Below, piece after piece: positions 1 to 56,784 of a DNA stretch of 64,000 nucleotides. Source of the DNA: Escherichia coli 042 (lineage in GTDB: Bacteria > Pseudomonadota > Gammaproteobacteria > Enterobacterales > Enterobacteriaceae); assembly GCF_000027125.1 (NCBI RefSeq), contig NC_017626.1. One strand, 5' to 3'. Below the pieces are notes generated by a model. It was not told the DNA's origin and did no database searches. It was given only the letters and a program-made list of their open reading frames with translations. The first letter of the stretch is position 1. Each line of letters starts with the position of its first letter. A program made the position numbers and the translations under genes.

Positions 1-364
1 CGGTGGTTTCGGCACCGTGTGCAACAAAATTAATTCCTGTGCCTGGCATGAAGAAATTTACCGTTATCAAGCCTAAGGCAATTGACAGCAATGAGGCGCA
101 AATAAATAAAAAGAGTGTTTTAGAAAAAATACGACCAAGGGCTTTGGCATCGCCCATTTTAGCAATACCTACCACCAGGGTAGAGACCACTAACGGAGCG
201 ATAATCATTTTTATTAGTCGTAAGAAAATCGTCGTGAATATCGATATTTCTTGCGCATAGAGTTTTGCGGTTTCCGGTGAAGCAGTGTTATTGAGCACTA
301 CGCCGATAATCATTCCAAGTACCAGCGCCAAAAGAATCATCGTGGTTAAACTTATTTTCTTCAT
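1..364 (-). CDS. Dicarboxylate/amino-acid:cation symporter (GltP/DctA family), 5' part; gene continues beyond window start
   Basis: Minus-strand reading frame from ATG at 362-364 (GGAGG 6 nt upstream) is open to position 2; translation MKKISLTTMILLALVLG...IKMIIAPLVVSTLVVGIAKMGDAKALGRI matches the conserved N-terminal helices of GltP-type transporters. The +3..260 ORF in the track is antisense to it. Confidence 0.6.
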   Translation of the reverse strand, partial: MKKISLTTMILLALVLGMIIGVVLNNTASPETAKLYAQEISIFTTIFLRLIKMIIAPLVVSTLVVGIAKMGDAKALGRIFSKTLFLFICASLLSIALGLITVNFFMPGTGINFVAHGAETT

Positions 365-524
365 TTTTTCCTCCATCAGGTGCACGGCGATAAATCAGAG
401 TCAGGAGAAGTAGATGCCTGAATAGAGATTCAGGCATCTACCTGCTATTACAACCTTACAAATAGCTGAAGTGTTGAACTGCAATAAGTGACGGGATGTC
501 AGTTGGCTAAAAGTATTCGGATTT

Positions 525-842
525 TTACAAATCGAAACTCATATTTAATAAAGGTGCATGTTGCTGTGCACCATAGACATCATTGTCACCTACATTCCCG
601 GAGATAATATCTCGTGGCATGACGATTTTTACTGCGTTAGAAGGATCAAACCAGACAATACGATGAATAAAGTCAGGTTCAACATGATATAAGCGCGCGA
701 TCAGTTCTGGGGTTAATTGCCCTGATGATTTAACTCGCTCATAGTTTTCTTTGGTTTTAAATAAAATATCTAAAACCAGTTCGTAAGGTCCGGCATTTTT
801 CGAACGAATGACTTGCGCCAGTGAGACAATTGACTGTTTCAT
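525..842 (-). CDS. DUF4387-like small protein (partner of AtuA-like protein)
   Basis: 105-aa ORF whose start overlaps the stop of the upstream 456-aa ORF (ATGA), operon context; family assignment from memory. Confidence 0.45.
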   Translation of the reverse strand: MKQSIVSLAQVIRSKNAGPYELVLDILFKTKENYERVKSSGQLTPELIARLYHVEPDFIHRIVWFDPSNAVKIVMPRDIISGNVGDNDVYGAQQHAPLLNMSFDL

Positions 843-2209
843 GCCTGAACTCCTTCTGGCGTCACCTGTTCAATATGGAAATCAAAACGCAGAGCGTCGT
901 TGGCTTCAATCAGGTGATATATGGAAAATTCGTATACTGGCCCGCCCTGGATATCAGAAGGGGAGAACGGGAACGCCAGGTTGCCTGCGGTAGCGATGCG
1001 GTTTTCATAGCCGTAGTGCAGCATGGTAGAGCGCACCAGCGAGCAAACGCTGTTGGCAATTTCCTGGGTCGGTGCAACTACATCAAGGACAATCCCCAGC
1101 TCATGCCCGGCAGTTTGCATCGGTTCATGGTCGCCCATCACCCCGTTTTTGCCGTACAGGTGGAAATTGATGCGAATGCTGTCATCGTCTAACGACAGGT
1201 TACGCGAAACGCTGGTTTTGACTTCATCGATGATTTTATCGATCCCGGCGATCATGATCGGGTCGCGCGTTCCTGCGATGGTCAGACAGCGGAAGCCCAC
1301 TCGTCGCGCACCTTCCAGTTTCAGGGCATACGGCGTTTCTTCATGCTTAGAACCGCTGACGTACACTTCGCCGTCATTGACCGCTTTAAATGTGCAGCCT
1401 TTCAGGTTCAACACGCCGCCAGGTCCAGGCAGGAAGTAGGGATCGGATTTCTCATACAGTGTGTGTGCAGCCGCTGACGTTTCGGTAAATTTACGCTTCG
1501 GATTAAATGTCTTCAGCGTAAAGCCGTTGTCATCAATGATGCCCATCGCACAGTCAGAGCCTGAGCCGGGCGTTGCGGCGATTGCTGCGCATTCAAGGAT
1601 TTTCCCACAATGCAGCGCCAGACCTTCATCAAAGCCTTGCATGATCGGTAGCGCAGCAAAACAGGCCGGGTCGTAAGCGCGCCCGCCCAGCACCACTTGC
1701 GCGCCTTCTTTCAGCGCCTGCTGGAAGGGTTCGATGCCCATTTGCGCAACGATATACGTACTTTCGTCAATCGCGTCGTGGGTTAACGGCGGGACAAAAT
1801 CCAGCGCCGTGATTTTGCCGTTATCCAGCGCCTGGTGGACGATGGCTTTGTCAACGTCTGCCGGGATCAGCGCCATCGAGAACGAGAGGTGCTCTTCCCG
1901 GGCAATCTCATGAATTATTTCTCGGCACCACTCCAGGTGTGGAGCGGCACCAGAACCGCCGGCCGTTCCGATCACCACCGGTATATTATTTTGCACGCCT
2001 GCGGTGATCATATAGCGCAGATCGCGCTTGACCCCTGCGCGATCGGTAAACGGTTTGCCCGCCCCAAGGTAGTGGGGGCCAGGATCGGAAGAGCCTGCAT
2101 CAACGGCGATCAGATCGGGCGATTCTGCCATCGCTTTGCGGAAGCTCTCCTCCGGGAATCCATACCCGAGGATTGCCGTTGGCGATAAGACTTTAAAAGA
2201 ACGAGCCAT
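839..2209 (-). CDS. DUF1446 / AtuA-like protein
   Basis: 456-aa ORF directly downstream of the methylaspartate ammonia-lyase gene; family assignment from memory of the AtuA-like fold, not verified. Confidence 0.5.
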   Translation of the reverse strand: MARSFKVLSPTAILGYGFPEESFRKAMAESPDLIAVDAGSSDPGPHYLGAGKPFTDRAGVKRDLRYMITAGVQNNIPVVIGTAGGSGAAPHLEWCREIIHEIAREEHLSFSMALIPADVDKAIVHQALDNGKITALDFVPPLTHDAIDESTYIVAQMGIEPFQQALKEGAQVVLGGRAYDPACFAALPIMQGFDEGLALHCGKILECAAIAATPGSGSDCAMGIIDDNGFTLKTFNPKRKFTETSAAAHTLYEKSDPYFLPGPGGVLNLKGCTFKAVNDGEVYVSGSKHEETPYALKLEGARRVGFRCLTIAGTRDPIMIAGIDKIIDEVKTSVSRNLSLDDDSIRINFHLYGKNGVMGDHEPMQTAGHELGIVLDVVAPTQEIANSVCSLVRSTMLHYGYENRIATAGNLAFPFSPSDIQGGPVYEFSIYHLIEANDALRFDFHIEQVTPEGVQA

Positions 2210-2212
2210 TTG

Positions 2213-3454
2213 TTAATCCTTAGCCTGCAACAGCGCGATAGTACGATTCATTTCGTTGAAGACAATATCGAGGCCTTCGTCAAAGCCCATCCCTGGTTTT
2301 ACCAGCATACGCATAGGGCGAGCGGCAAGGGCGACGTGGACACAGGTGCGGGCACTGACATCAGTTTCATTGCAGGTGCCGCCCTGGTACGCTTCCATGC
2401 TGTGGCTATTGCAGTAAAGAACCGCATCGACGATGTTGTGAATACTGCCCAGATCCGGGGTTTTGATTTGCACCATGTGGCAACTGGCGGCATCAGTGAA
2501 ATCAACAATATCCTGGTAGGTGTTACACCATTCATCGGCCACAATTTTCACGCCGGAACCGAGGCGCGTCAGCTCTTTGGTAATCGCGGTCAGCAGGCGA
2601 ATTTGATCGGGCTTGTTACCGGCATCGACCGGCCCTTCAATGTAGAGCGGCAGGCCTTGCGCTTCTTTTTCCAGGCTGGCGATGTATTGCGCACAGCGAA
2701 GCGGATCCATATCGAAGATCAGACCGATAGTGCCGTATACATCGATGTGCAGGGTTGGGTGGTAGCGTGCGCTGGTGCGCTTGCTCAGAATGCGATCCGA
2801 CAACCAGCGGACATATTCGCGCAGTTTTTCACCTTTAAAGCCCAGCTTATCTTCGACGTTATTAATCAGCGCATGGGGCAGCACGTCGATGCCTTTAAGG
2901 ATCATCTTATCGACGGCGATATATCGATCGTCGCCGCTCTGACCAAATAATGGAATGGATTCCGCCACGCGTGGCAACTGCCATTCATCACAGACCACTT
3001 CAGTTTTCAGACGGCCGGTTGCCAGCGCGGTAGCATCAAGCAGCGCCTGTGATAATCCGTAGCGCACGGCGGTATGCAGCAAGTTGCCGTCAATACGCAA
3101 TTTGTCGAAGAAACGGGCATTCGGCAGGAAAGCATCCACATCGCGGCCTACCAGTAATGGCTTGATATGGTCGTTGAGGAACGGAATAAAGTGCTCTGCG
3201 AGGAACAGTGGATCGCGACCACCTGCCCCGGAATACTGTACGGCAGCACAGTCACCTACAGCGACCGCGCCGTTTTCCAGAATCAACTGTACCGATACGC
3301 ACTCCCCGGCCTGACGTACGGCGTTAAACCCCTGTGTTACTGGCTCCCCGGTATAAAAAAAGCCGTCGTGACCCGCTCCGTTTTTTATCGCCTGCTGGTC
3401 ATCGAAATAGAATGAGGAATAGCCAGCGGTGAACAGGGCCTGTTTTATTTTCAT
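2213..3454 (-). CDS. 3-methylaspartate ammonia-lyase
   Basis: 413-aa ORF, typical length and enolase-superfamily features of methylaspartate ammonia-lyase; start overlaps stop of the upstream glutamate mutase E gene. Confidence 0.8.
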   Translation of the reverse strand: MKIKQALFTAGYSSFYFDDQQAIKNGAGHDGFFYTGEPVTQGFNAVRQAGECVSVQLILENGAVAVGDCAAVQYSGAGGRDPLFLAEHFIPFLNDHIKPLLVGRDVDAFLPNARFFDKLRIDGNLLHTAVRYGLSQALLDATALATGRLKTEVVCDEWQLPRVAESIPLFGQSGDDRYIAVDKMILKGIDVLPHALINNVEDKLGFKGEKLREYVRWLSDRILSKRTSARYHPTLHIDVYGTIGLIFDMDPLRCAQYIASLEKEAQGLPLYIEGPVDAGNKPDQIRLLTAITKELTRLGSGVKIVADEWCNTYQDIVDFTDAASCHMVQIKTPDLGSIHNIVDAVLYCNSHSMEAYQGGTCNETDVSARTCVHVALAARPMRMLVKPGMGFDEGLDIVFNEMNRTIALLQAKD

Positions 3455-4899
3455 TATGGTCTTCCTATTAATTTACTGTGGGATACAGCATTGATGTCAT
3501 CTACAACCATCTGGAATGTCGGTTGGCGTCCTTCAAAACGTGCGCGTTCCGCAACGTAATCGTGGTGGAGGTCGAGAATATCTTTTGGCAATGGAACGGC
3601 TCCGGCTTCCAGTACGCGTATCGCGCCGGTGTTATCACGGACAGGAAGAATTTTGCCCGCGTTACACGCGGCTGGTGCAAACGGCACATCCAGTACGCCC
3701 GCTTCAAATGCCAGCACCGTACCGCGCGCAATATCACCATTACCCAGTTCGAACACTTTATTGAGTACCGCGCGAACCTCGCTCTTAATCAGTTCAATTT
3801 CCAGTTCAACCGCAGGGCACGGCGGGAATTTCTGCTCATTGACCATGTTGAGCATCTGGCGGGAGGCTTTCAGCCCCTGAATGTTGGCAGCGGCAGTCGG
3901 GATTCCCCAGGCTTCGTGCGGGCTTTTGGTGATGACTTTGGTGGCACCAGACATCCCCGCGACGGCTGCGCCCCAGGAGATAATAGCGAACGCTTTCGAT
4001 TCGTCTTCCGGAAAGCCGCCCATCCACTGGTGAAACACGGTACTCAATTCATAGTCGGTATAGCCATAGCTCTGAAAATATTCGTGTGCAAGTTCACGCA
4101 GAGACTGGATCGCCGCAACATCCTGCGTCAGGCTGCCGACCTGTCCATAACCAACGGTGATAGATTTCACACCCTGTTCCAGCGCCAGCAAGCCTTCGAT
4201 TATCGCGATAGAGTGCGAGATAAACGGCGGGATCAGCGTACCCGTTAGTGGGCCAAACGGTTCGCGGTTGATGCGGATCCCGTGTTCTTCATACATCCCC
4301 ATTAAACGGTCGCAGTACTGCCAGTCGCGGATCGATTTTTCCAGCGTTACGCGCTTGGCATACGGAATATTGTAGGAAATGCCGCCGCCTTCATAACTGG
4401 TAAAGCCGCTGGCCATCGAGATTTCAGCCAGCAGACGCGCATCTGGCGTGCCGTGGCGGATCTGTAGCGGTTTTTGCAAAGTTTCGGTGAGGCGACGGCA
4501 AGCTGCGACGCCGTGGTTAACGACCGGTAAACCGTTCAGTTTAGAGGTTCCGGCTTCGATGGATTTTTTAATCCCTACAGCCGCTTCTTCGTACCGATTC
4601 AGACGGGTATATGCATCGATAGTGCTCGGCAGCAGATCGCACTCTTCTTGTAGTGTTTTCAGTAGTTCGATGTGTTCGTCCATCAGCGCCACACCTGCGC
4701 GCGGTTGGCTAAGGGTTTTACCTTCCTTGTCTGCTTTCAACAGCACAAGAGAGAAGCGTTTATGCTCAGGAATGGTTTGTTGGTATTTAACGCCATCTTC
4801 AAAGTTTTCAACATCCTTGCCGGTTTCCCAGGTTTTCAGTACCTGTTGCCGCTCGGTCATGAATTCGTCATGGGTTAATTTCTTATTTCGAAGTTCCAT
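3454..4899 (-). CDS. Glutamate mutase epsilon (E) subunit (methylaspartate mutase)
   Basis: 481-aa ORF, length and sequence character of GlmE/MutE; sits between the L and lyase genes as in clostridial mesaconate-pathway operons. Confidence 0.8.
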   Translation of the reverse strand: MELRNKKLTHDEFMTERQQVLKTWETGKDVENFEDGVKYQQTIPEHKRFSLVLLKADKEGKTLSQPRAGVALMDEHIELLKTLQEECDLLPSTIDAYTRLNRYEEAAVGIKKSIEAGTSKLNGLPVVNHGVAACRRLTETLQKPLQIRHGTPDARLLAEISMASGFTSYEGGGISYNIPYAKRVTLEKSIRDWQYCDRLMGMYEEHGIRINREPFGPLTGTLIPPFISHSIAIIEGLLALEQGVKSITVGYGQVGSLTQDVAAIQSLRELAHEYFQSYGYTDYELSTVFHQWMGGFPEDESKAFAIISWGAAVAGMSGATKVITKSPHEAWGIPTAAANIQGLKASRQMLNMVNEQKFPPCPAVELEIELIKSEVRAVLNKVFELGNGDIARGTVLAFEAGVLDVPFAPAACNAGKILPVRDNTGAIRVLEAGAVPLPKDILDLHHDYVAERARFEGRQPTFQMVVDDINAVSHSKLIGRP

Positions 4900-4917
4900 T
4901 GATTGCAGCCTTAATTG

Positions 4918-6306
4918 TTATAGGGTTAAGCATTGAATACTGGTGCGCGCGGCGGCCAGCGGATCGACTCTGGCGACGTTTGCCAGCAGTGGTAATAGCC
5001 CCCGGGAATCGCGGTAATATTCAAATTCGGTCGGTAAGAGAATGCGTTTACCGTCGTCGTTTAACTCGCGGTATTTCAACCAGTGATGCATATCGAACTG
5101 ACTGGCACGCGAGAGCCATCCGCCGGATCCGACGACTTTACGCACGGTTGTCAGGTCACGTCCCATCTGTAAATCGACATTGCCGACGCAGGTGCAGACC
5201 TCTTTTTTGGTGCCCGCATGTCTTTCGGTGGCATAACCCACACACAGTCCGGCCAGGACGGTATCGAAATATTTTTCTTCTGCATTCGCGGGTAAGTAGT
5301 CGGGATGAGCGACTAGATGACGGAGGTAATGATAAAAAGCGTCCAGCTGTGCGGGTTGCTGAGCAAAATTCACATTGACTAACTCTTTCGCACTTTCACC
5401 AACCACCATTGCCGAGACGCGCATTCCCAGATCGCCTTCCACCGTCCGTTTCACGAAGGGTTCCGGTACGCCGTGTAAAACGGTGTCGGGCGAGAGCGTG
5501 TTGGCACAGGCGGAATAGACATCGGTGGTTGCGCCACCCATGTCGATCAGCATGAACTCTTTCCAGCTGTGATCGACATTACTGATTGCCTTAACCAGTT
5601 CAAAGACTGTCCACGGTGTCGGCATTGGTTCTTCGCCTGTTTTATCAACAACGACATCCAGCCCTTTCCCTTTAACGATGCGTTTAAGGAATATGTCGCA
5701 GATAGCCTGGCGTGCAGCTAAAGGGTTCGGATGGTCAAGATCGGGCAGAACGTTGTCGACGATGGTCAGGTCTTTATGCCCTAGGATCTCCTGCACCTCG
5801 TCCTGAATATCCCGGTTTCCGGCATAAATAATGGCGCAGTCGAGTTTGGATTCTGCCAGCACACGGGCGTTATTCAGGCCGTAGCTTTCTTCTCCGCCGT
5901 CGGTGCCGCCGGTGAACAAGAGAATATCGGGCTGCGTTTCTTCCAGTGCCTGGATATCACGGCGGTTCAGCTTGTAGGCGTAATATTGCGCAATTTTAGC
6001 CCCCGCAGAGTGAGCGGTTACTTTCGCGGTTTCCAGGGTGATAGAAGGCACCAATCCCATTGCGGCAACCGCCAGCCCACCTTTGGCAGAGGAGGAATAC
6101 TTCAATGCAACCTCACCACTGTTTAACAGGGGGAGGGCATTATCTACGTTTAACACCTGGTCCAGGCTGGAGAAAAACCCCTTCGCCAGATGATGGGTGG
6201 TGGTTGGGGTCAGAACGTGGTTAACCAACGTTAACGCGTCCCCCTCCCGGGTGAAGAGGGCTGCTTTGGTCCACGTCGATCCAATATCGACAGAGACGAT
6301 TTGCAT
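4918..6306 (-). CDS. Glutamate mutase-associated protein L (MutL/GlmL, putative reactivase/chaperone)
   Basis: 462-aa ORF between S and E subunit genes; N-terminus [18 protein letters not shown] is an ASKHA/actin-like ATPase motif typical of GlmL. Confidence 0.7.
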   Translation of the reverse strand: MQIVSVDIGSTWTKAALFTREGDALTLVNHVLTPTTTHHLAKGFFSSLDQVLNVDNALPLLNSGEVALKYSSSAKGGLAVAAMGLVPSITLETAKVTAHSAGAKIAQYYAYKLNRRDIQALEETQPDILLFTGGTDGGEESYGLNNARVLAESKLDCAIIYAGNRDIQDEVQEILGHKDLTIVDNVLPDLDHPNPLAARQAICDIFLKRIVKGKGLDVVVDKTGEEPMPTPWTVFELVKAISNVDHSWKEFMLIDMGGATTDVYSACANTLSPDTVLHGVPEPFVKRTVEGDLGMRVSAMVVGESAKELVNVNFAQQPAQLDAFYHYLRHLVAHPDYLPANAEEKYFDTVLAGLCVGYATERHAGTKKEVCTCVGNVDLQMGRDLTTVRKVVGSGGWLSRASQFDMHHWLKYRELNDDGKRILLPTEFEYYRDSRGLLPLLANVARVDPLAAARTSIQCLTL

Positions 6307-6755
6307 CAGATTGCCTCTTCAAGAATGCGAGTATCAACGTCATGACGTTGGTTGATATCGTGGGCCATCAGCTGACAAACATCTTCTAAGTCATGACTTG
6401 GGGAAAAGACGCGATCAAATCCCATCTCTTTGAACTTGGTTTCCACATCAGCGAAGTCATGTTTTCCGACCACCAGGTTACCGCCCACATAGAGCAGGAT
6501 GTTACCCAGCCCACGCTCGATGCAGCGTTCGCGCATGCCCAGACAATCGATATCGCCATGCCCATAGATAGAGGAGACGACAATCGCGTCAGCACCAGTT
6601 TCAATGGCAGCATCAATATATTCGTCCTGGCTGACCATTACGCCCAGATTAATAACTCTGAAGTCATGGTTGCTAAAAACGCGGTCTAGAACTTTATTGC
6701 CTACTGCATGGCAGTCCGCGCCAATAACGCCAATCACAAGTGTTGCTTTCTTCAT
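6306..6755 (-). CDS. Glutamate mutase sigma (S) subunit, B12-binding
   Basis: 149-aa protein from [22 protein letters not shown] (DxHxxG cobalamin-binding motif); the track ORF extends 21 codons upstream but the internal Met fits the family length. Confidence 0.75.
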
Positions 6756-7302
6756 GGGTAATCCTTTGTAAGACAGAGAGTAAAATAAGTTACACACGTC
6801 GTATTTATGGCCGCTCATAACGGCACAGGTTTAATATCACAGGAGTGTCTTTATCTGACCGTAATGTTGCAATTGATCTATTTTCAAAATGTCTTTCGGG
6901 AAATGATTGTTTAAAGTGTGTTTTCAAATTCTCATTTTAATTCAGTGTGTTATGTCAACTAATGTCATGAATGTTAAATTTTTAAAATTAACTTGATTTG
7001 ATGTATTGAGATAATTGTGATCAACTTCTAATTTGCATTTTTGTGACGTGGCTTTAGCCATGAGTAAATGCATTTCATAAAAGTTAAGACGAATTTCACT
7101 GCAATTCATCTCTGCTTAATGTAAAAATAATGTTGAAAATAACAAATAATTAATGATTCATGCGAATTATGACCTTTGTTAGCTCTTTTGATTTTTCGTA
7201 AAAAAGAAAAGTACATGAAGGTGCTACCAGTACGAGTAACGTTAATCAAAAGTTTTATTACGTCTGGCAATAACGCAGGCCATTTTTCGCGACAGGAGGG
7301 AT

Positions 7303-7725
7303 TTAATCAGTATAATCCTCATACAATAGGTCAGGATTTACTGAACCGTTAACGGGGATTTGGTGTTGAAATTTAGAAATGGCGGAGTCAATTAATGAGG
7401 ACAATATCGGAAAAATGACAGTGTCAGAATTAATTTCAATTAATCCTTCTCGTTGTTGACCAAAAAAGATATTTATCTTGATTTCATTTGTACTACGGCA
7501 ATCAATATGCAGTAATTTTTGATCGCTGAGATTTTCTGTTTCATAAATGTTTTTGGCGATAGTCGGATGTATTGATGCCAGACATCTGCTCAGATAAGCC
7601 AGATCCTTTAGGGAACACCCCGCTGAGTAGAGGATGTCAGAGAATTTTTGTGTGTCAACTGTTGTCTCTGAAGCGTATGTTGCATTGACAGGAAAGGTGT
7701 TGAAAGAGATTTGAGATGGGATCAT
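7303..7725 (-). CDS. Hypothetical protein (140 aa) in AT-rich islet
   Basis: Intact ORF in a strongly AT-rich segment, co-oriented and 80 bp downstream of the 314-aa ORF; no recognisable motif. Confidence 0.4.
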   Translation of the reverse strand: MIPSQISFNTFPVNATYASETTVDTQKFSDILYSAGCSLKDLAYLSRCLASIHPTIAKNIYETENLSDQKLLHIDCRSTNEIKINIFFGQQREGLIEINSDTVIFPILSSLIDSAISKFQHQIPVNGSVNPDLLYEDYTD

Positions 7726-7805
7726 TATTTAAATCTTTCCGTGAGTAATAAAAATTAATCCCCGGGCATTGTTTAGCAATATTTGCCACAGGGAATATAT
7801 AAAAA

Positions 7806-8750
7806 TTAAAGTATTTGATTGGCATCGGTTAACTGATCAATAACCAGTGCCAGATTGGTAAACATTTTGAAAAAGCGATACTGGCTCGGAATATCTCTTT
7901 CAAAGACGAAACATTCAATGTCATTGTTTGAAAAATAAAGGACTAGTGTTGCTGATTCGTCAGGAAAAATATGGAAATATATCTGGTTACCAGAAGGAGG
8001 ATAGTCCAGAAGAAGGGTATCTTTGCCCGTCACATACCTGTTGTGGTCGTGGATGCTGCGCTCACACTTCATCAGAGGTGTCATGATACTCATGTATTCA
8101 TCTGATGTTAATATATTAAAATCACCATCCATTTTAAAGAAACGATAAAGTAACAGTACATCCTCTTGCGTAACCGGTTCGTTTGTTTTTAGAGGGAAAT
8201 AAGTGGGAACCAGAAGATGAGGTTCTAATCTATTTTGTTGAGCGCTATAACTAAATTTGAACATAAATTCCGGATCGCTCATCAATTGAGCGACATAATT
8301 ATGCCTGGCTTCAAAAATTTTAACTTTTATCAGGTTAAATAAGTCTGTTTCGTCATCATGTATTAAAAGACATTGGCCATAGCAGCCAGGCTTTTTTTCA
8401 TTATAAGCAGAAACGGTTATTCTGTCAGGAGTGTCAACGTTATATCCAAAAGCCAGATAGTGACCTTCCTCATCGAGATTTGTTTCCAGGTTATTTAAAT
8501 TCATCACATGAAGTGTTTGCAATGCTGATTCAATGAGCTGTTGACTCTCTGAGGTAAATGTTTCGCGCTGCGTTGTATAAAGTGTATCGATTCCAACGAC
8601 TATCCGATGTGGGTCAAGGATGGCGGCAATCATCTTTATTACCTGCACAGTCATGGGTGATGTCATTGATTCTTTATCTGTTTTTAGAGGATCATTAGAT
8701 GGCCAACCTGAGAAGCGATTGACAGCAGAACTGATATTATCAGGACTCAT
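7806..8750 (-). CDS. Hypothetical protein (314 aa) in AT-rich islet
   Basis: Long intact ORF in AT-rich DNA between the glutamate mutase operon and the cydA regulatory region; no recognisable family. Confidence 0.45.
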   Translation of the reverse strand: MSPDNISSAVNRFSGWPSNDPLKTDKESMTSPMTVQVIKMIAAILDPHRIVVGIDTLYTTQRETFTSESQQLIESALQTLHVMNLNNLETNLDEEGHYLAFGYNVDTPDRITVSAYNEKKPGCYGQCLLIHDDETDLFNLIKVKIFEARHNYVAQLMSDPEFMFKFSYSAQQNRLEPHLLVPTYFPLKTNEPVTQEDVLLLYRFFKMDGDFNILTSDEYMSIMTPLMKCERSIHDHNRYVTGKDTLLLDYPPSGNQIYFHIFPDESATLVLYFSNNDIECFVFERDIPSQYRFFKMFTNLALVIDQLTDANQIL

Positions 8751-9555
8751 AGCAGCAACCTCATTGTAATCAAGCGAGGCGCTGAGCGTACTCGGCTATA
8801 GAAAAACTAACTTGCAAAAATCGCTCATTTTTCATTTATCAGGCGAAAGTGGTCTCTGTTCACTCAGAAACAATCACTCCCGCTAAGTCATACCTGTTTC
8901 ATCGATACATTTAAGTGATTATTACTAATGAAACAATAACATAACGGGCTTACGGCCGGTGCTCATAAAGGCAACAATCAATTAACTTTGATAAAAATAT
9001 GTTATGTAAAATAGCAACAAATTGGCTACTCTAATCAATTGGTATTATAAAAAGTGGATAGGGCGGTTCTGTTAAATAAAACACTGGTTTTTTATCTATA
9101 CTTTTTCATTGTAATAATTGTGTTGCATAAATATTTCACAATAAATTAACAATAAAATTACCAATGATCTATGGTTTATACATAATTAACATATTTGGTT
9201 GATTTTGATATAAATCAATTTTTAATTCTTGAAAAAAATCTGCAAAACACGATAAATTGTCGTAGATCAAATTGGTGAGATCGTGACAATTTCGCTATAA
9301 ATTGATCACTGTCGAAAAATGCAAATTTGCTCAATAAAAACCTGTTTATTGTAAGGATTTTGCGGCGTAATATAATTACGGGATCAATTTGGTTTATTCA
9401 TTAACATATTTGTAACTTTTTTATCATTGTCTTTTCCTCTTTTGATGAAATGGCAACGATAGAGGCGAGCAAATAATTTTGTATTGGGGCATGCGTGTGA
9501 CCCTTTCTAACGGGGTTCACTCTCGGAGTCTTCATGCGATGAGCAAGGAGTCATG

Positions 9556-11124
9556 ATGTTAGATATAGTCGAACTGTCGCGCTTACAGTTTGCCTTGACC
9601 GCGATGTACCACTTCCTTTTTGTGCCACTGACGCTCGGTATGGCGTTCCTGCTGGCCATTATGGAAACGGTCTACGTCCTTTCCGGCAAACAGATTTATA
9701 AAGATATGACCAAGTTCTGGGGCAAGTTGTTTGGTATCAACTTCGCTCTGGGTGTGGCTACCGGTCTGACCATGGAGTTCCAGTTCGGGACTAACTGGTC
9801 TTACTATTCCCACTATGTAGGGGATATCTTCGGTGCGCCGCTGGCAATCGAAGGTCTAATGGCCTTCTTCCTCGAATCCACCTTTGTAGGTCTGTTCTTC
9901 TTCGGTTGGGATCGTCTGGGTAAAGTTCAGCATATGTGTGTCACCTGGCTGGTGGCGCTCGGTTCAAACCTGTCCGCACTGTGGATTCTGGTTGCGAACG
10001 GCTGGATGCAAAACCCAATCGCGTCCGATTTCAACTTTGAAACTATGCGTATGGAGATGGTGAGCTTCTCCGAGCTGGTGCTTAACCCGGTTGCTCAGGT
10101 GAAATTCGTTCACACTGTAGCGTCTGGTTATGTGACTGGCGCGATGTTCATCCTCGGTATCAGCGCATGGTATATGCTGAAAGGTCGTGACTTCGCCTTC
10201 GCTAAACGCTCCTTTGCTATCGCTGCCAGCTTCGGTATGGCTGCCGTTCTGTCTGTTATTGTTCTGGGTGATGAATCTGGTTACGAAATGGGCGACGTGC
10301 AGAAAACCAAACTGGCTGCTATTGAAGCCGAGTGGGAAACGCAACCTGCGCCTGCTGCCTTTACTCTGTTCGGCATTCCTGATCAGGAAGAGGAGACGAA
10401 CAAATTTGCGATCCAGATCCCTTACGCGCTGGGCATCATTGCAACGCGTTCCGTGGATACTCCAGTTATCGGCCTGAAAGAACTGATGGTGCAGCATGAA
10501 GAACGCATTCGTAACGGGATGAAGGCGTACTCTCTGCTCGAGCAACTGCGTTCTGGTTCTACCGACCAGGCGGTTCGTGACCAGTTCAATAGCATGAAGA
10601 AAGACCTCGGTTACGGTCTGCTGCTGAAACGCTATACGCCAAACGTGGCTGATGCGACTGAAGCGCAGATTCAACAGGCAACCAAAGACTCCATTCCGCG
10701 TGTAGCGCCGCTGTACTTCGCGTTCCGTATCATGGTGGCGTGTGGCTTCCTGCTGCTGGCAATCATCGCGCTCTCTTTCTGGAGTGTCATCCGCAACCGC
10801 ATTGGCGAGAAAAAATGGCTGCTGCGCGCCGCGCTGTACGGTATTCCGCTGCCGTGGATTGCTGTAGAAGCGGGCTGGTTCGTGGCTGAATATGGCCGCC
10901 AACCGTGGGCTATCGGTGAAGTGCTGCCGACAGCTGTGGCGAACTCGTCACTGACCGCAGGCGATCTCATCTTCTCAATGGTGCTGATTTGCGGCCTGTA
11001 TACCCTGTTCCTGGTGGCAGAATTGTTCTTAATGTTCAAGTTTGCACGCCTCGGCCCAAGCAGCCTGAAAACCGGTCGCTATCACTTTGAGCAGTCTTCC
11101 ACGACTACTCAGCCGGCACGCTAA
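9556..11124 (+). CDS. cydA: Cytochrome bd-I ubiquinol oxidase subunit I
   Basis: Translation [63 protein letters not shown] matches E. coli CydA; the track ORF starts one Met earlier at 9553. Confidence 0.95.
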
Positions 11125-45188: not shown

Positions 45189-46259
45189 TTATTTGATTTC
45201 AATTTTGTCCCACTCCCTGCCTCTGTCATCACGATACTGTGATGCCATGGTGTCCGACTTATGCCCGAGAAGATGTTGAGCAAACTTATCGCTTATCTGC
45301 TTCTCATAGAGTCTTGCAGACAAACTGCGCAACTCGTGAAATGTAGGCGGATCCCCTTCGAAGGAAAGACCTGATGCTTTTCGTGCGCGCATAAAATACC
45401 TTGATACTGTGCCGGATGAAAGCGGTTCACGACGAGTAGATGCAATTATGGTTTCTCCGCCAAGAATCTCTTTGCATTTATCAAGTGTTTCCTTCATTGA
45501 TATCCCGAGAGCATCAACATGCAATGTTGTAGGGATGGCAATTTTTACACCTGTTTTGCTTTGCTCGACATAAAGATATCCATCTACGATATCAGACCAC
45601 TTCATTTCGCATAAATCACCAACTCGCTGCCCGGTAACAACAGCCAGTTCCATTGCAAGTCTGAGCCAACATGGTGATGATTCTGCTGCTTGATAAATTT
45701 TCAGGTATTCGTCAGCCGTAAGTCTTGATCTCCTTACCTCTGATTTTGCTGCGCGAGTGGCAGCGACCGGGTTTGTTGTTATATGGCCTTCAGCTATTGC
45801 CTCTCGGAATGCATCGCTTAGTGTTGATCTGATTAACTTGGCTGACGCCGCCTTGCCCTCGTCTATGTATCCATTGAGCATTGCCGCAATTTCTTTTGTG
45901 GTGATGTTTTCAAGTGGAGCATCAGGCAGACCCCTCCTTATTGCTTTAATTTTGCTCATGTAATTTATGAGTGTCTTCTGCTTGATTCCTCTGTTGGCGA
46001 GGATTTTTTCGTAGCGATCAAGCCATGAATGTAACGTAACAGAATTATCACTGTTGATTCTCGCTGTCAGAGGCTTGTGTTTGTGTCCTGAAAATAACTC
46101 AATGTTGGCCTGTATAGCTTCAGTGATTGCTATCCTCCTGTCTCGGCCTAATCCAAACTCTTTACCCGTCCTTGGGTCCCTGTAGCAGTAATATCCATTG
46201 TTTCTTATATAAAGGTTAGGGGGTAAATCCCGGCGCTCATGACTTCGCCTTCTTCCCAT
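45189..46259 (-). CDS. int: Lambda-type tyrosine integrase
   Basis: 356-aa ORF MGRRRSHERRDLPPNLYIRNNGYYCYRDPRTGKEFGLGRDRRIAITEAIQANIELF matches lambda Int. Confidence 0.95.
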   Translation of the reverse strand: MGRRRSHERRDLPPNLYIRNNGYYCYRDPRTGKEFGLGRDRRIAITEAIQANIELFSGHKHKPLTARINSDNSVTLHSWLDRYEKILANRGIKQKTLINYMSKIKAIRRGLPDAPLENITTKEIAAMLNGYIDEGKAASAKLIRSTLSDAFREAIAEGHITTNPVAATRAAKSEVRRSRLTADEYLKIYQAAESSPCWLRLAMELAVVTGQRVGDLCEMKWSDIVDGYLYVEQSKTGVKIAIPTTLHVDALGISMKETLDKCKEILGGETIIASTRREPLSSGTVSRYFMRARKASGLSFEGDPPTFHELRSLSARLYEKQISDKFAQHLLGHKSDTMASQYRDDRGREWDKIEIK

Positions 46260-49314: not shown

Positions 49315-49803
49315 TTATTTGATAAGAAGTGAAGGTTTCCCAACTTTGAGTTGAGCGCCGGGGATATTTATTCCTGCTTTTAGTTGGTGTTTGATTGCTA
49401 GTTTGTCGGCTTTAATTGTCGTTTCAAACTCAACGTATTCTTGAGGAAGGGCGCTTGAGTCGATGATTTCTACAGTTTCTGACGGTTTGCGGATTGTTAC
49501 CTGGTGAATACCTGCTCGAATCTTTTTCTTGCCAACCATTTCAAGCGATGACGCTATATATGATTTGATGCTGTCAATCTTATTTTGAATTACTGCGGCT
49601 CGCTCATTTAGTGACTTTGCCTCTTCCTTGAGGCGTTCAGCATAACCAGATTCATTTTTAATAATGGCGAGAAGTTGCTCTATTTTATCGGTAAATTCTC
49701 CTTCCATGCCTTCTATTGTGTCAGCAATCATCTCTGGCTCTAAATCTGAATCCATCAATTTTGCGTATTCATTGGCTATTTCATATAGTTTGCTCACTGG
49801 CAA
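49315..49803 (-). CDS. Gp157-like recombination-module protein
   Basis: 162-aa acidic coiled-coil ORF overlapping the recT stop; resembles the Siphovirus Gp157 family that accompanies phage annealases. Confidence 0.5.
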   Translation of the reverse strand: MPVSKLYEIANEYAKLMDSDLEPEMIADTIEGMEGEFTDKIEQLLAIIKNESGYAERLKEEAKSLNERAAVIQNKIDSIKSYIASSLEMVGKKKIRAGIHQVTIRKPSETVEIIDSSALPQEYVEFETTIKADKLAIKHQLKAGINIPGAQLKVGKPSLLIK

Positions 49804-50692
49804 CCTCCAGTTTCGCTTTGCATTCTATGTAAATGGCTTGTACGTTCTGCTGCAATTTCATTCCAGATGTCAGGCGATATGCTTCTGCAAAATATCGCTT
49901 CAAATCATCCATGTTTTCTGCCTGAGCCATTTCATCGCAAAGAAGTTGTACTTTATCCATTATTTCCTGCTGGCGTTTCCGTTCATCTTCGCGGATATCT
50001 TCCTCTGATTTGTGCGGCATAACTGGTTCAGTCCACACACCTTCTTCTTCGTTTAGTACGTGAATAGCACTATCAAGACGTGATGCCTTAGGCCAATACT
50101 TGCTTGCACGCTTTACGACCGTCTTTCGCGCCATCTCATTCCAGTGATTTACCCATGGTCCTTTATCGCTGAATGCTGCCTTGCTTGTTTTCCTTACAGC
50201 CTCAATTTCAGCCAGACTCATCTCTTCCGTTAGATAATCACCTGCTGGCGTCTTAACTGTGCAGTAAACGCCAACGATATCACCACGATCACCGAAGGCG
50301 TTGTATTTATGGGTTGGTGCTTTATCAAGCCCGTTTGACTCATAGGTATCGTTAGCATGAACAAGTTTTGCCTGACCCCATGAGATAACACCAGACTCCA
50401 TTGCAATATGGAGCAATCCCATATAACTGATATCAAGGCAAACCATGCCGTCGCGCGGAACTAGATAAGCAAGTTTGCTGGCCGGGTTTAAGGTGATGCC
50501 GATCGCCGCAACATTGATGATGGCGTTCTGTGCGCTGGTTGGATTTGCCAGTGCCGTTTTAGCCAGGTAATCATTTTTCTGGAAATACTGAATTGCAAAC
50601 TGGCTTTCCTTAGCCCATGTCACCGTCTGTTCAGTCAATGCTCCGCAGAATAACTGCTCCTGCTGTTTAACGAATTCAACGATATTGCTCAT
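49781..50692 (-). CDS. recT: RecT-family single-strand annealing protein
   Basis: 303-aa ORF with RecT/Bet-like core; occupies the bet position of the early-left operon. Confidence 0.75.
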   Translation of the reverse strand: MSNIVEFVKQQEQLFCGALTEQTVTWAKESQFAIQYFQKNDYLAKTALANPTSAQNAIINVAAIGITLNPASKLAYLVPRDGMVCLDISYMGLLHIAMESGVISWGQAKLVHANDTYESNGLDKAPTHKYNAFGDRGDIVGVYCTVKTPAGDYLTEEMSLAEIEAVRKTSKAAFSDKGPWVNHWNEMARKTVVKRASKYWPKASRLDSAIHVLNEEEGVWTEPVMPHKSEEDIREDERKRQQEIMDKVQLLCDEMAQAENMDDLKRYFAEAYRLTSGMKLQQNVQAIYIECKAKLEVASEQTI

Positions 50693-54589: not shown

Positions 54590-55411
54590 ATGGGCGTCGT
54601 TAAGTTAGCTGATTACAGGCCTCAACTGGAGGTCGTGGAGCATCGCGTGGCAGATACCGAAGATGGTTTCATGCGCGTTGCTAACGAGATTACCGACAGT
54701 CTGCTGATGGCTGATTTAACCGTCCGGCAGTTGAAGGTGATGCTCGCTATCATGCGCAAGACATACGGATTCAATAAGCCGATGGATCGACTCACAAACA
54801 CGCAGATAGCAGCCATGACAGGTATTCATCACACTCATGTTTGCGCTGCCAAGCGCCAGCTTATTGAGCGTAAATTCCTCATTGCTGATGGCGTGAAAAT
54901 CGGAGTGAACAAGGTGGTTTCGCAGTGGATTAGCCAGGACAGCTTAACATTAGCTAAAACAGCTAATAAAACATTAGCCGAGTCGGCTAATTGGTATAAG
55001 CCAAGTCAGCTAAACACAAAAGACAATATACAAAAGACAATAAATACAAATACCCCCTTACCCCCTAACGGGGGCGGCGATGGGCAGGTTAAACCTGAAC
55101 GTCGCAAGGCAGAACGAATCGACTACGAATCCTTCCTGAACGCCTACAACACCGAAGTCGGTGACAGACTGCCGCACGCTGTTGCGGTCAACGAGAAACG
55201 CAAACGCCGCCTGAAGAAAATCATCCCGCAACTGAAAACGCCAAACGTGGACGGTTTCAGAGCGTATGTCAGGGCGTTTGTGCATCAGGCCAAGCCGTTT
55301 TACTTCGGAGACAACGACACGGGCTGGACGGCAGATTTTGATTACCTGCTGAGGGAAGATTCGTTAACGGGAGTTCGGGAAGGGAAGTTTGCAGACAGGG
55401 GGATTGCATGA
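54590..55411 (+). CDS. Replication initiator, phage O-like
   Basis: 273-aa ORF with N-terminal O-type origin-binding region ([38 protein letters not shown]). Confidence 0.75.
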
Positions 55412-56784
55412 GACAGGATATCGAAGCGAGCGTTATCGGTGGCCTGCTGATTGGTGGATTAACTCCAACCGCCAGTGACGTTCTGGCAACGCTGGAGCCG
55501 GAAGCGTTTTCAATTCCGCTCTACCGGAAAGCCTTCGAGGTTATCCGCAAGCAGGCGCGAAACAGAAATTTAATCGACGCGCTGATGGTTGCCGAGGCGT
55601 GCGGAGAGGAGCATTTCACGTCAATCCTGATGACCAGCAAAAACTGCCCGAGTGCCGCAAACCTGAAGGGATATGCCGGAATGGTCGCGGATAACTATCA
55701 CCGCCGTCTGGTGCTGGAAATCATGGATGAAATGCGTGAACCAATTCAGAGCGGAACCATCGATACATCGAGTCAGGCGATGGACGAGCTCGTAAAGCGT
55801 CTTTCAGCTATCAGAAAGCCCCGTGACGAGGTTAAACCTGTACGGTTAGGGGAAATCATTACTGACTACACTGACACGCTTGACAGGCGTCTGAGGAACG
55901 GAGAAGAGTCAGATACCCTGAAGACCGGAATCGAAGAACTTGACGCCATCACCGGAGGGATGAACGCGGAAGACCTTGTGATAATCGCTGCTCGTCCTGG
56001 TATGGGGAAAACCGAACTGGCGCTGAAGATTGCCGAAGGCGTTGCAAGCCGCGTTATTCCTGGTTCTGACGTCCGGCGCGGAGTATTGATTTTCTCAATG
56101 GAAATGAGCGCATTGCAGATTGCAGAGCGGAGCATTGCCAACGCCGGGAGGATGTCGGTTAGCGTACTGCGAAATCCTGCATCGATGGATGACGAAGGCT
56201 GGGCGCGTGTTGCTAACGGCATGAGTCAGCTTGCAGATTTGGATGTATGGGTAGTCGATGCCTCGCGGTTATCGGTCGAAGAAATTCGCTCAATCGCAGA
56301 ACGGCACAAACAGGAAAATCCAAACCTGTCACTCATCATGGCGGATTATCTTGGCCTGATTGAGAAGCCGAAAGCAGATCGCAACGACCTCGCAATTGCT
56401 CACATCTCCGGAAGCCTGAAGGCGATGGCGAAAGACCTGAAAACGCCTGTTATCTCCCTAAGTCAGCTTTCGCGCGATGTTGAGAAGCGACCAAACAAAC
56501 GCCCGACAAACGCAGATTTGCGTGATTCTGGAAGCATTGAACAGGACGCAGACTCAATCATCATGCTCTATCGGGAAGCGGTATATGACGAGAACAGTAG
56601 CGCCGCGCCATTTGCTGAAATCATTGTGACGAAAAACCGTTTTGGCTCGCTTGGTACGGTTTACCAGCGGTTCTGTAACGGACACTTTGTTGCATGTGAC
56701 CAGGATGAAGCCAGACAGATTTGCACAACATCAAATGCACCTGCTGCGCGTGGCAGACGATATGCACAAGGGGCTGACGTATGA
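55408..56784 (+). CDS. DnaB-type replicative helicase
   Basis: 458-aa ORF with Walker A (AARPGMGKT) and DnaB C-terminal motifs; start overlaps the O-like stop. Confidence 0.85.

Follow-up and report, generated by a model that had tools for sequence, protein, structure and literature searches.

Two small genes, ORF314 and ORF140, make up an AT-rich islet between the glutamate mutase (glm) operon and cydA in a 64,000-nucleotide stretch of Escherichia coli 042 (contig NC_017626.1), which in its full length is called the window here. We think it fairly probable that these open reading frames (ORFs) encode old, weakly selected cytoplasmic proteins that are expressed conditionally and silenced by their AT-rich context, with ORF314 as the durable unit and ORF140 as a non-obligate neighbour. 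The islet is real but ordinary, a catalogued and uncharacterised orphan pair and not a new system; RefSeq labels both ORFs 'hypothetical protein', and in O157:H7 Sakai they are named ECs0767 (ORF314) and ECs0766 (ORF140). An earlier reading of the letters alone, below called the original prediction, had placed here two co-oriented ORFs of 314 and 140 aa, 80 bp apart, and the coordinates agree: ORF314 occupies 7806..8750 and ORF140 7303..7725, both on the minus strand and both in the list of open reading frames, and between them lies an AT-rich spacer of 80 bp (7726..7805, minus strand, GC content 0.30).

Selection on the two reading frames

On a divergent Escherichia contig (L003), ORF314 has an orthologue with 65% amino acid identity across all 314 residues and zero indels. 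Pairwise ratios of non-synonymous to synonymous substitution (dN/dS) are 0.36-0.52 for ORF314 and ~0.35 for ORF140 in the informative comparison, while cydA gives 0.00-0.04 in the same genome pairs. The excess of synonymous changes is significant for ORF314 when the window is compared with E. albertii (Fisher p = 2e-7), and also for ORF140 (Fisher p = 6e-4). When the 212 substitutions observed between ORF314 and its E. albertii orthologue are scattered at random, the frame of ORF314 stays open in only 0.04% of neutral simulations. Because the frame has remained open without an indel over 212 substitutions, and because dN/dS is below 1, ORF314 and ORF140 are genuine coding genes under purifying selection that is relaxed.

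Both predicted products are soluble and acidic, ORF314 with 36.3 kDa and a pI of 4.7 and ORF140 with 15.7 kDa and a pI of 4.65, and computation finds neither a signal peptide nor a transmembrane segment in either of them. Profile searches of Pfam, NCBIfam, PADLOC, PHROGs and the PDB gave no match for ORF314, ORF140 or their diverged orthologues, which bears out the earlier statement that neither has a recognisable family. A search of 5.8 billion proteins returned 5 clusters for ORF314 and 42 for ORF140; the source names shown are all E. coli or Shigella, and one cluster was traced to the L003 contig. An exhaustive profile search of 1.84 billion cluster representatives found only fragments of ORF314 itself, and the matches in AFDB50 are uncharacterised proteins only, from E. 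coli, E. albertii, Shigella dysenteriae and a human gut metagenome fragment. Judged by these searches, ORF314 is an orphan family restricted to Escherichia/Shigella, and ORF140 an orphan confined to E. coli/Shigella.

Structure prediction, which the original prediction had proposed along with profile searches, likewise assigned no family or fold to either protein. The AlphaFold2 models are unreliable (mean pLDDT 44 for ORF314 and 49.5 for ORF140), since no more than 4 near-identical sequences exist for the former and 7 for the latter. Both proteins are predicted to be mixed alpha/beta; for ORF140 the predicted order of elements is alpha-alpha-alpha-beta-beta-beta-alpha, at low confidence, and its C-terminus is variable. 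Two ideas about the ancestry of the pair, that ORF140 is paralogous to a domain of ORF314 and that ORF314 arose by internal duplication, were both rejected since neither hhalign comparison is significant. A faint resemblance over 22 residues can be seen between positions 37-58 (ILDPHRIVVGIDTLY) and 226-247 (SIHDHNRYVTGKDTLL) of ORF314, again not significant by hhalign.

Base composition and anatomy of the islet

GC content is 0.27-0.42 over ~6800-9500, against ~0.52 in the flanking glm and cyd genes, and no 2.7-kb segment in the 64 kb is more AT-rich than the one that begins at 6801 (GC 0.347; median 0.500, 5th percentile 0.426). At third codon positions both ORF314 and ORF140 have a GC of 0.35, compared with 0.50-0.65 for glmS/L/E and cydA/B. 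The original prediction had drawn the AT-rich interval from 6850 to 9550. Its AT-richness is confirmed as the minimum of the window, but the last ~380 bp (9176-9555) are not islet DNA, since they belong to the control region of cydA, a core element whose AT-richness extends to K-12-type strains (GC 0.36).

On the glm side, ORF140 is separated from glmS by a non-coding, AT-rich spacer of 547 bp (6756..7302, minus strand, GC ~0.31), which has been kept along with the islet in all carriers examined and presumably contains the promoter of the glm operon. On the other side, positions 8751..8914 form the islet-specific part of the divergent ORF314-cydA intergenic region; only islet-bearing genomes match it, and in an alignment of E. 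coli with E. albertii it is ~90% conserved. We presume that the 5' leader and promoter of ORF314 lie here, and a GAGG Shine-Dalgarno sequence can be read at 8759..8762 on the minus strand, 8 nt 5' of the ATG. Promoter and terminator scans gave matches at chance level only, and Rfam had no match over 6500-9700. Since the spacer between the two genes (7726-7805) contains no terminator-like hairpin, ORF314 and ORF140 are likely co-transcribed, probably from the islet-specific ~160 bp that adjoin the cydA control region.

Distribution, age and position

Presence/absence polymorphism across E. coli, which the original prediction had expected, is evident: the whole interval is found in 1134 and the two genes alone in 1135 of 5426 complete genomes (~21%). 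The methylaspartate mutase (glm) operon is likewise found in 1135 E. coli genomes, and glmS adjoins the islet in 7/7 islet-bearing E. coli loci that were opened wide enough. The cluster for glutamate fermentation with FumD (ECs0755-ECs0764 of O157:H7) has been reported in 26.5% of E. coli, and Klebsiella, Citrobacter and Salmonella are among the other genera with the glm cluster (Kronen & Berg 2015, PMC4682846); neither ORF314 nor ORF140 came up in a term search of the paper. In K-12-type strains mngR-mngA-mngB occupies the interval between sucD and cydA instead, and in some other strains a gene for a tetratricopeptide repeat (TPR) protein is found there. The islet is the cydA-proximal end of an accessory segment, also holding the methylaspartate/FumD island, that replaces mngRAB in about one fifth of E. 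coli, and it may serve to mark the glm/FumD haplotype.

As a separate observation, a comparison of positions 1-9555 of the window with five other loci (L002, L003, L005, L006 and L011) shows the sucD-cydA interval to be a multi-allelic replacement hotspot in Escherichia, with at least five alternative contents. These are mngRAB (K-12); mngAB with the TPR-protein gene; a TPR pseudogene only; the methylaspartate/FumD island with ORF140/ORF314; and, in E. albertii, ORF314 with a gene for a 258-aa protein resembling outer membrane proteins.

In a scan of GTDB with one genome per species, only four records contain a relative of ORF314: the E. albertii type strain, Escherichia sp. MOD1-EC7003 and two metagenome-assembled genomes labelled Collinsella and Citrobacter. 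Because the DNA carried by these two metagenome-assembled genomes is 98-100% identical to that of E. coli, they are presumably mis-binned. In E. albertii, ORF314 directly adjoins cydA in the same divergent orientation and without the glm island, and the 258-aa gene and sucD stand on its opposite side. The sequence upstream of cydA on the L003 contig matches E. albertii almost base for base, and from this near-identity the contig probably belongs to E. albertii. It has an intact ORF314, and the copy in the type strain is broken by a frameshift (209 + 108 aa). In MOD1-EC7003, ORF314 is a multiply broken pseudogene beside an intact glm operon.

ORF314 thus has a single chromosomal, cydA-proximal site, and because this site is the same in E. 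albertii and another Escherichia species, the gene is older than the split between these species. We found no copy among 50,697 phage records and no genuine copy on a plasmid, the three 'plasmid' matches being mislabelled chromosomes of 0.7-4.9 Mb; the flanks of the islet hold no notable repeats and no tRNA, and the islet has no integrase or transposase of its own. A mobile cassette was rejected for this lack of a mobility signature and for the position conserved between species. Of the horizontally acquired cassette that had been proposed, the part that stands is AT-rich, compositionally foreign accessory DNA, while neither separate mobility nor recent arrival does; the islet is accessory and foreign in composition, yet old and fixed at one site.

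Transcription and silencing

In RNA-seq of strain EDL933 under 11 conditions, the hypothetical genes at this locus reach RPKM (reads per kilobase per million mapped reads) values of 0-5, with one of four at 0-12, and cydA 2-212 (Landstorfer 2014, PMC4048457, Table S4). Whatever the exact gene mapping, the islet is essentially untranscribed in EDL933. The combination of DNA with 35% GC and near-zero transcripts fits H-NS-type silencing, as the original prediction had suggested, and we infer that silencing by H-NS is the most likely cause of the near-silence; the raised non-synonymous rate of the two genes also agrees with the faster non-synonymous evolution reported for H-NS-bound genes (Higashi 2016, PMC4720273).

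We thus suggest that two genuine, weakly constrained and genus-restricted orphan genes were in place next to cydA by the time E. coli and E. albertii diverged, and that both are kept almost silent under the laboratory and environmental conditions assayed. The functional part would be ORF314, as a mixed alpha/beta protein of the cytoplasm, soluble and acidic, that is expressed only under conditions yet untried; ORF140 would be a non-obligate partner that is disappearing in several lineages. Either gene can be lost without its neighbour.

Several points weigh against this proposal. Approximately 40 of 45 carriers, a spread sample of E. coli genomes, retain both genes at full length, so that 'being lost' applies to some lineages only. 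The perfect co-occurrence with the glm island in E. coli could indicate a functional link, although we discount it. The expression data come from one strain and one study, we found no proteomic or ribosome-profiling entry for either ORF and no chromatin immunoprecipitation or hns-mutant data on the islet, and the published high-affinity motif of H-NS is not enriched, with 9 near-matches against 5.6 expected in the window, two of the nine falling in the ORF314-cydA intergenic region. The proposal also names no biochemical function.

Independent loss of the two genes

The state of both genes was inspected locus by locus in a sample of ~15 loci, and each gene was found broken beside an intact partner. 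ORF140 is frameshifted and ORF314 intact in O145:H28 12E115 and ETEC1701; in E. albertii, ORF140 is a 31-aa remnant while ORF314 is intact, and in Escherichia sp. MOD1-EC7003 it is a 47-aa remnant. Conversely, in EC581 ORF314 has lost its 5' end and its promoter to an IS3 element, and ORF140 is intact. Both genes are disrupted in XJ5.2 (IS1 and a frameshift, with ORF140 frameshifted) and in Br_112 (insertions of the IS4 family), and frameshifted variants of ORF140 are present among database proteins. Disruption of the two genes is therefore recurrent, not dominant. In the O145:H28 12E115 locus (L008), glmL (1120-2507 of that locus) and ORF140 (3504-3925) are both annotated as frameshifted, which suggests that the whole accessory segment is decaying in that lineage.

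Such disruption raises the question of whether ORF314 and ORF140 are functionless relics of an ancient acquisition that drift towards pseudogenes. The near-zero expression, a dN/dS of ~0.4 and the repeated frameshifts and insertion-sequence (IS) insertions in E. coli, E. albertii, Escherichia sp. and Shigella are what such decay would leave behind. We nonetheless regard it as unlikely, since the frame of ORF314 has survived its 212 substitutions without an indel, an outcome so rare in the neutral simulations, for each gene dN/dS lies significantly under 1, and most of the sampled E. coli carriers have both at full length.

Alternative explanations

The order of a large gene and then a small one had also been read as an effector with its chaperone. 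Here ORF314 (or ORF140) would be injected through a type III secretion system (T3SS), either that of the locus of enterocyte effacement (LEE) or E. coli type III secretion system 2 (ETT2), and ORF140 would be a class I chaperone. ORF140 has the size (~130-160 aa) and acidity of such chaperones and lies, as they do, next to a larger gene, 80 bp downstream of it. The AT-rich, silent DNA resembles many effector loci, and the family is found in Escherichia only, including E. albertii, O157:H7, O145:H28 and enteropathogenic E. coli (EPEC) E2348/69, which are LEE carriers according to the literature. Ser, Thr, Asn, Pro, Gln and Ile together make up 50-57% of the first 30 residues of both proteins, a weak heuristic for secretion. 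Yet neither protein matches an effector or chaperone family in Pfam, NCBIfam or the PDB, and the carriers include porcine enterotoxigenic E. coli (ETEC), poultry, canine and extended-spectrum beta-lactamase (ESBL) clinical isolates, which, judged by strain names, are usually LEE-negative. ORF140 is moreover eroded in E. albertii, where ORF314 is kept, and its predicted order of secondary-structure elements, although of low confidence, differs from that of the canonical chaperone. Taken together, this makes an effector/chaperone pair rather improbable.

We give little credence to a related proposal, in which ORF314 belongs to a new, Escherichia-specific catalytic family whose production is limited to the host and which acts as a toxin-like enzyme or secreted effector, ORF140 being its dedicated yet dispensable binding partner. 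ORF314 contains two invariant blocks, YGQCLL (124-129) and KCERSIHD (228-235), which could provide the Cys/His site of such an enzyme. YGQCLL resembles YGQCW, the active-site string of animal transglutaminases; the likeness has no Pfam or profile support and serves as a lead only. The positive basis of this catalytic reading is confined to the gene layout, the acidity and the N-terminal composition.

A toxin-antitoxin, toxin-immunity or abortive-infection pair, the remaining interpretation of the original prediction, is very unlikely. The genes are adjacent and co-oriented in AT-rich accessory DNA, and the second is small and acidic; the independent loss of either gene, however, argues against an addictive toxin/antidote or toxin/immunity pair, and obligate coupling of this kind is disfavoured. 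Full silencing would make loss of an antidote free of cost, so the evidence from disruption is strong but not absolute. The profile searches with PADLOC, Pfam, NCBIfam, PHROGs and the PDB came back empty, the genes have one site on the chromosome and no copy on phages or genuine plasmids, and a role in anti-phage defence finds no PADLOC model that matches either protein and no defence island at the locus, the neighbours being metabolic (glm) and respiratory (cyd) with no defence genes among them.

Hardly credible, and rejected on phylogenetic distribution, is the idea that the two serve the methylaspartate (glutamate mutase/FumD) pathway in an accessory or regulatory role: both ORFs lie directly upstream of glmSLE on the same strand, their genome counts in E. 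coli are identical and they are always adjacent in the loci opened, but the glm cluster occurs in many genera while homologues of ORF314/ORF140 are absent outside Escherichia/Shigella, ORF314 is retained in E. albertii without the glm island, and the 547-bp AT-rich gap separates ORF140 from glmS.

If old, conditionally expressed and silenced genes are indeed what the islet holds, it would be one more case of genus-restricted, near-silent orphans that persist at the edge of a recombination hotspot, and a test case for the survival of silenced orphan genes. Little changes whichever of the readings holds.

The cydA control region and other features of the window

The cydA control region (8915..9555, plus strand) lies outside the islet, as delimited by match boundaries, alignment and identities per 100 bp. 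Its distal part (8915-9175) is shared with the TPR-gene haplotype, and its proximal part (9176-9555) is common to all E. coli and strongly diverged from K-12. A comparison of 9156-9555 with K-12 shows that the haplotype of the cydAB control region has diverged strongly; the cydA coding sequence is 99.0% identical. Upstream of cydA, the identity to K-12 is 90% at -1..-100, 66% at -101..-200, 80% at -201..-300 and 63% at -301..-400, and sequences farther out are unrelated; an FNR-like box, TTGAT-N4-ATCAA, is kept. Because the control region is so diverged in the islet haplotype, cytochrome bd-I may be regulated differently from one E. coli lineage to another, and this divergence may perhaps be more useful than the islet finding.

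Elsewhere in the window, a second and smaller AT-rich stretch (GC 0.39-0.44) is found at 1-1000 inside the glm/FumD island, around the gap between a dicarboxylate symporter gene and a DUF4387 gene. A lambdoid prophage of lower GC (0.40-0.47) extends from ~45189 to the end of the window (64000); it includes an integrase (45189-46259, minus strand), RecT (49781-50692), a replication O-like gene (54590-55411) and a DnaB-like helicase (55408-56784).

Comparison with known systems

Class I T3SS pairs such as CesT-Tir and SycE-YopE resemble the islet in that the gene for a ~15 kDa acidic protein stands beside that for a larger soluble protein, in AT-rich DNA and in a genus with LEE and ETT2 systems. 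They differ from it in having no sequence similarity or confident fold similarity to ORF314 or ORF140; in addition, the small gene of the islet is downstream of the large one, the carriers include presumably T3SS-negative pathotypes, and loss of the small gene is seen where the large one persists. Type II toxin-antitoxin and polymorphic toxin-immunity modules share with the islet two co-oriented, closely spaced genes in accessory DNA, whereas the genes of the islet are lost independently, match no such family and are single-copy, at a fixed site and off mobile elements.

The FumD/glutamate-fermentation cluster of O157:H7 is the neighbour of the islet, co-oriented and co-inherited with it in E. 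coli and of similar frequency (21% here for the islet; 26.5% in Kronen & Berg 2015, PMC4682846, for the cluster). In contrast to ORF314 and ORF140, which are AT-rich, genus-restricted and in E. albertii present without it, the cluster has normal GC, a defined enzymology and a wide spread in Enterobacteriaceae. The islet also resembles ORFan genes in H-NS-silenced, AT-rich accessory DNA of Enterobacteriaceae: a GC of 35-38% in a genome of 50% GC, a patchy occurrence among strains, no homologues outside the genus, near-zero transcripts and a raised dN/dS, as reported of H-NS-bound genes (PMC4720273). Unlike these, the islet is without a mobility signature and has held the same position since before the split of E. 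coli and E. albertii, which speaks for a long-settled resident of this locus and not a recent acquisition.

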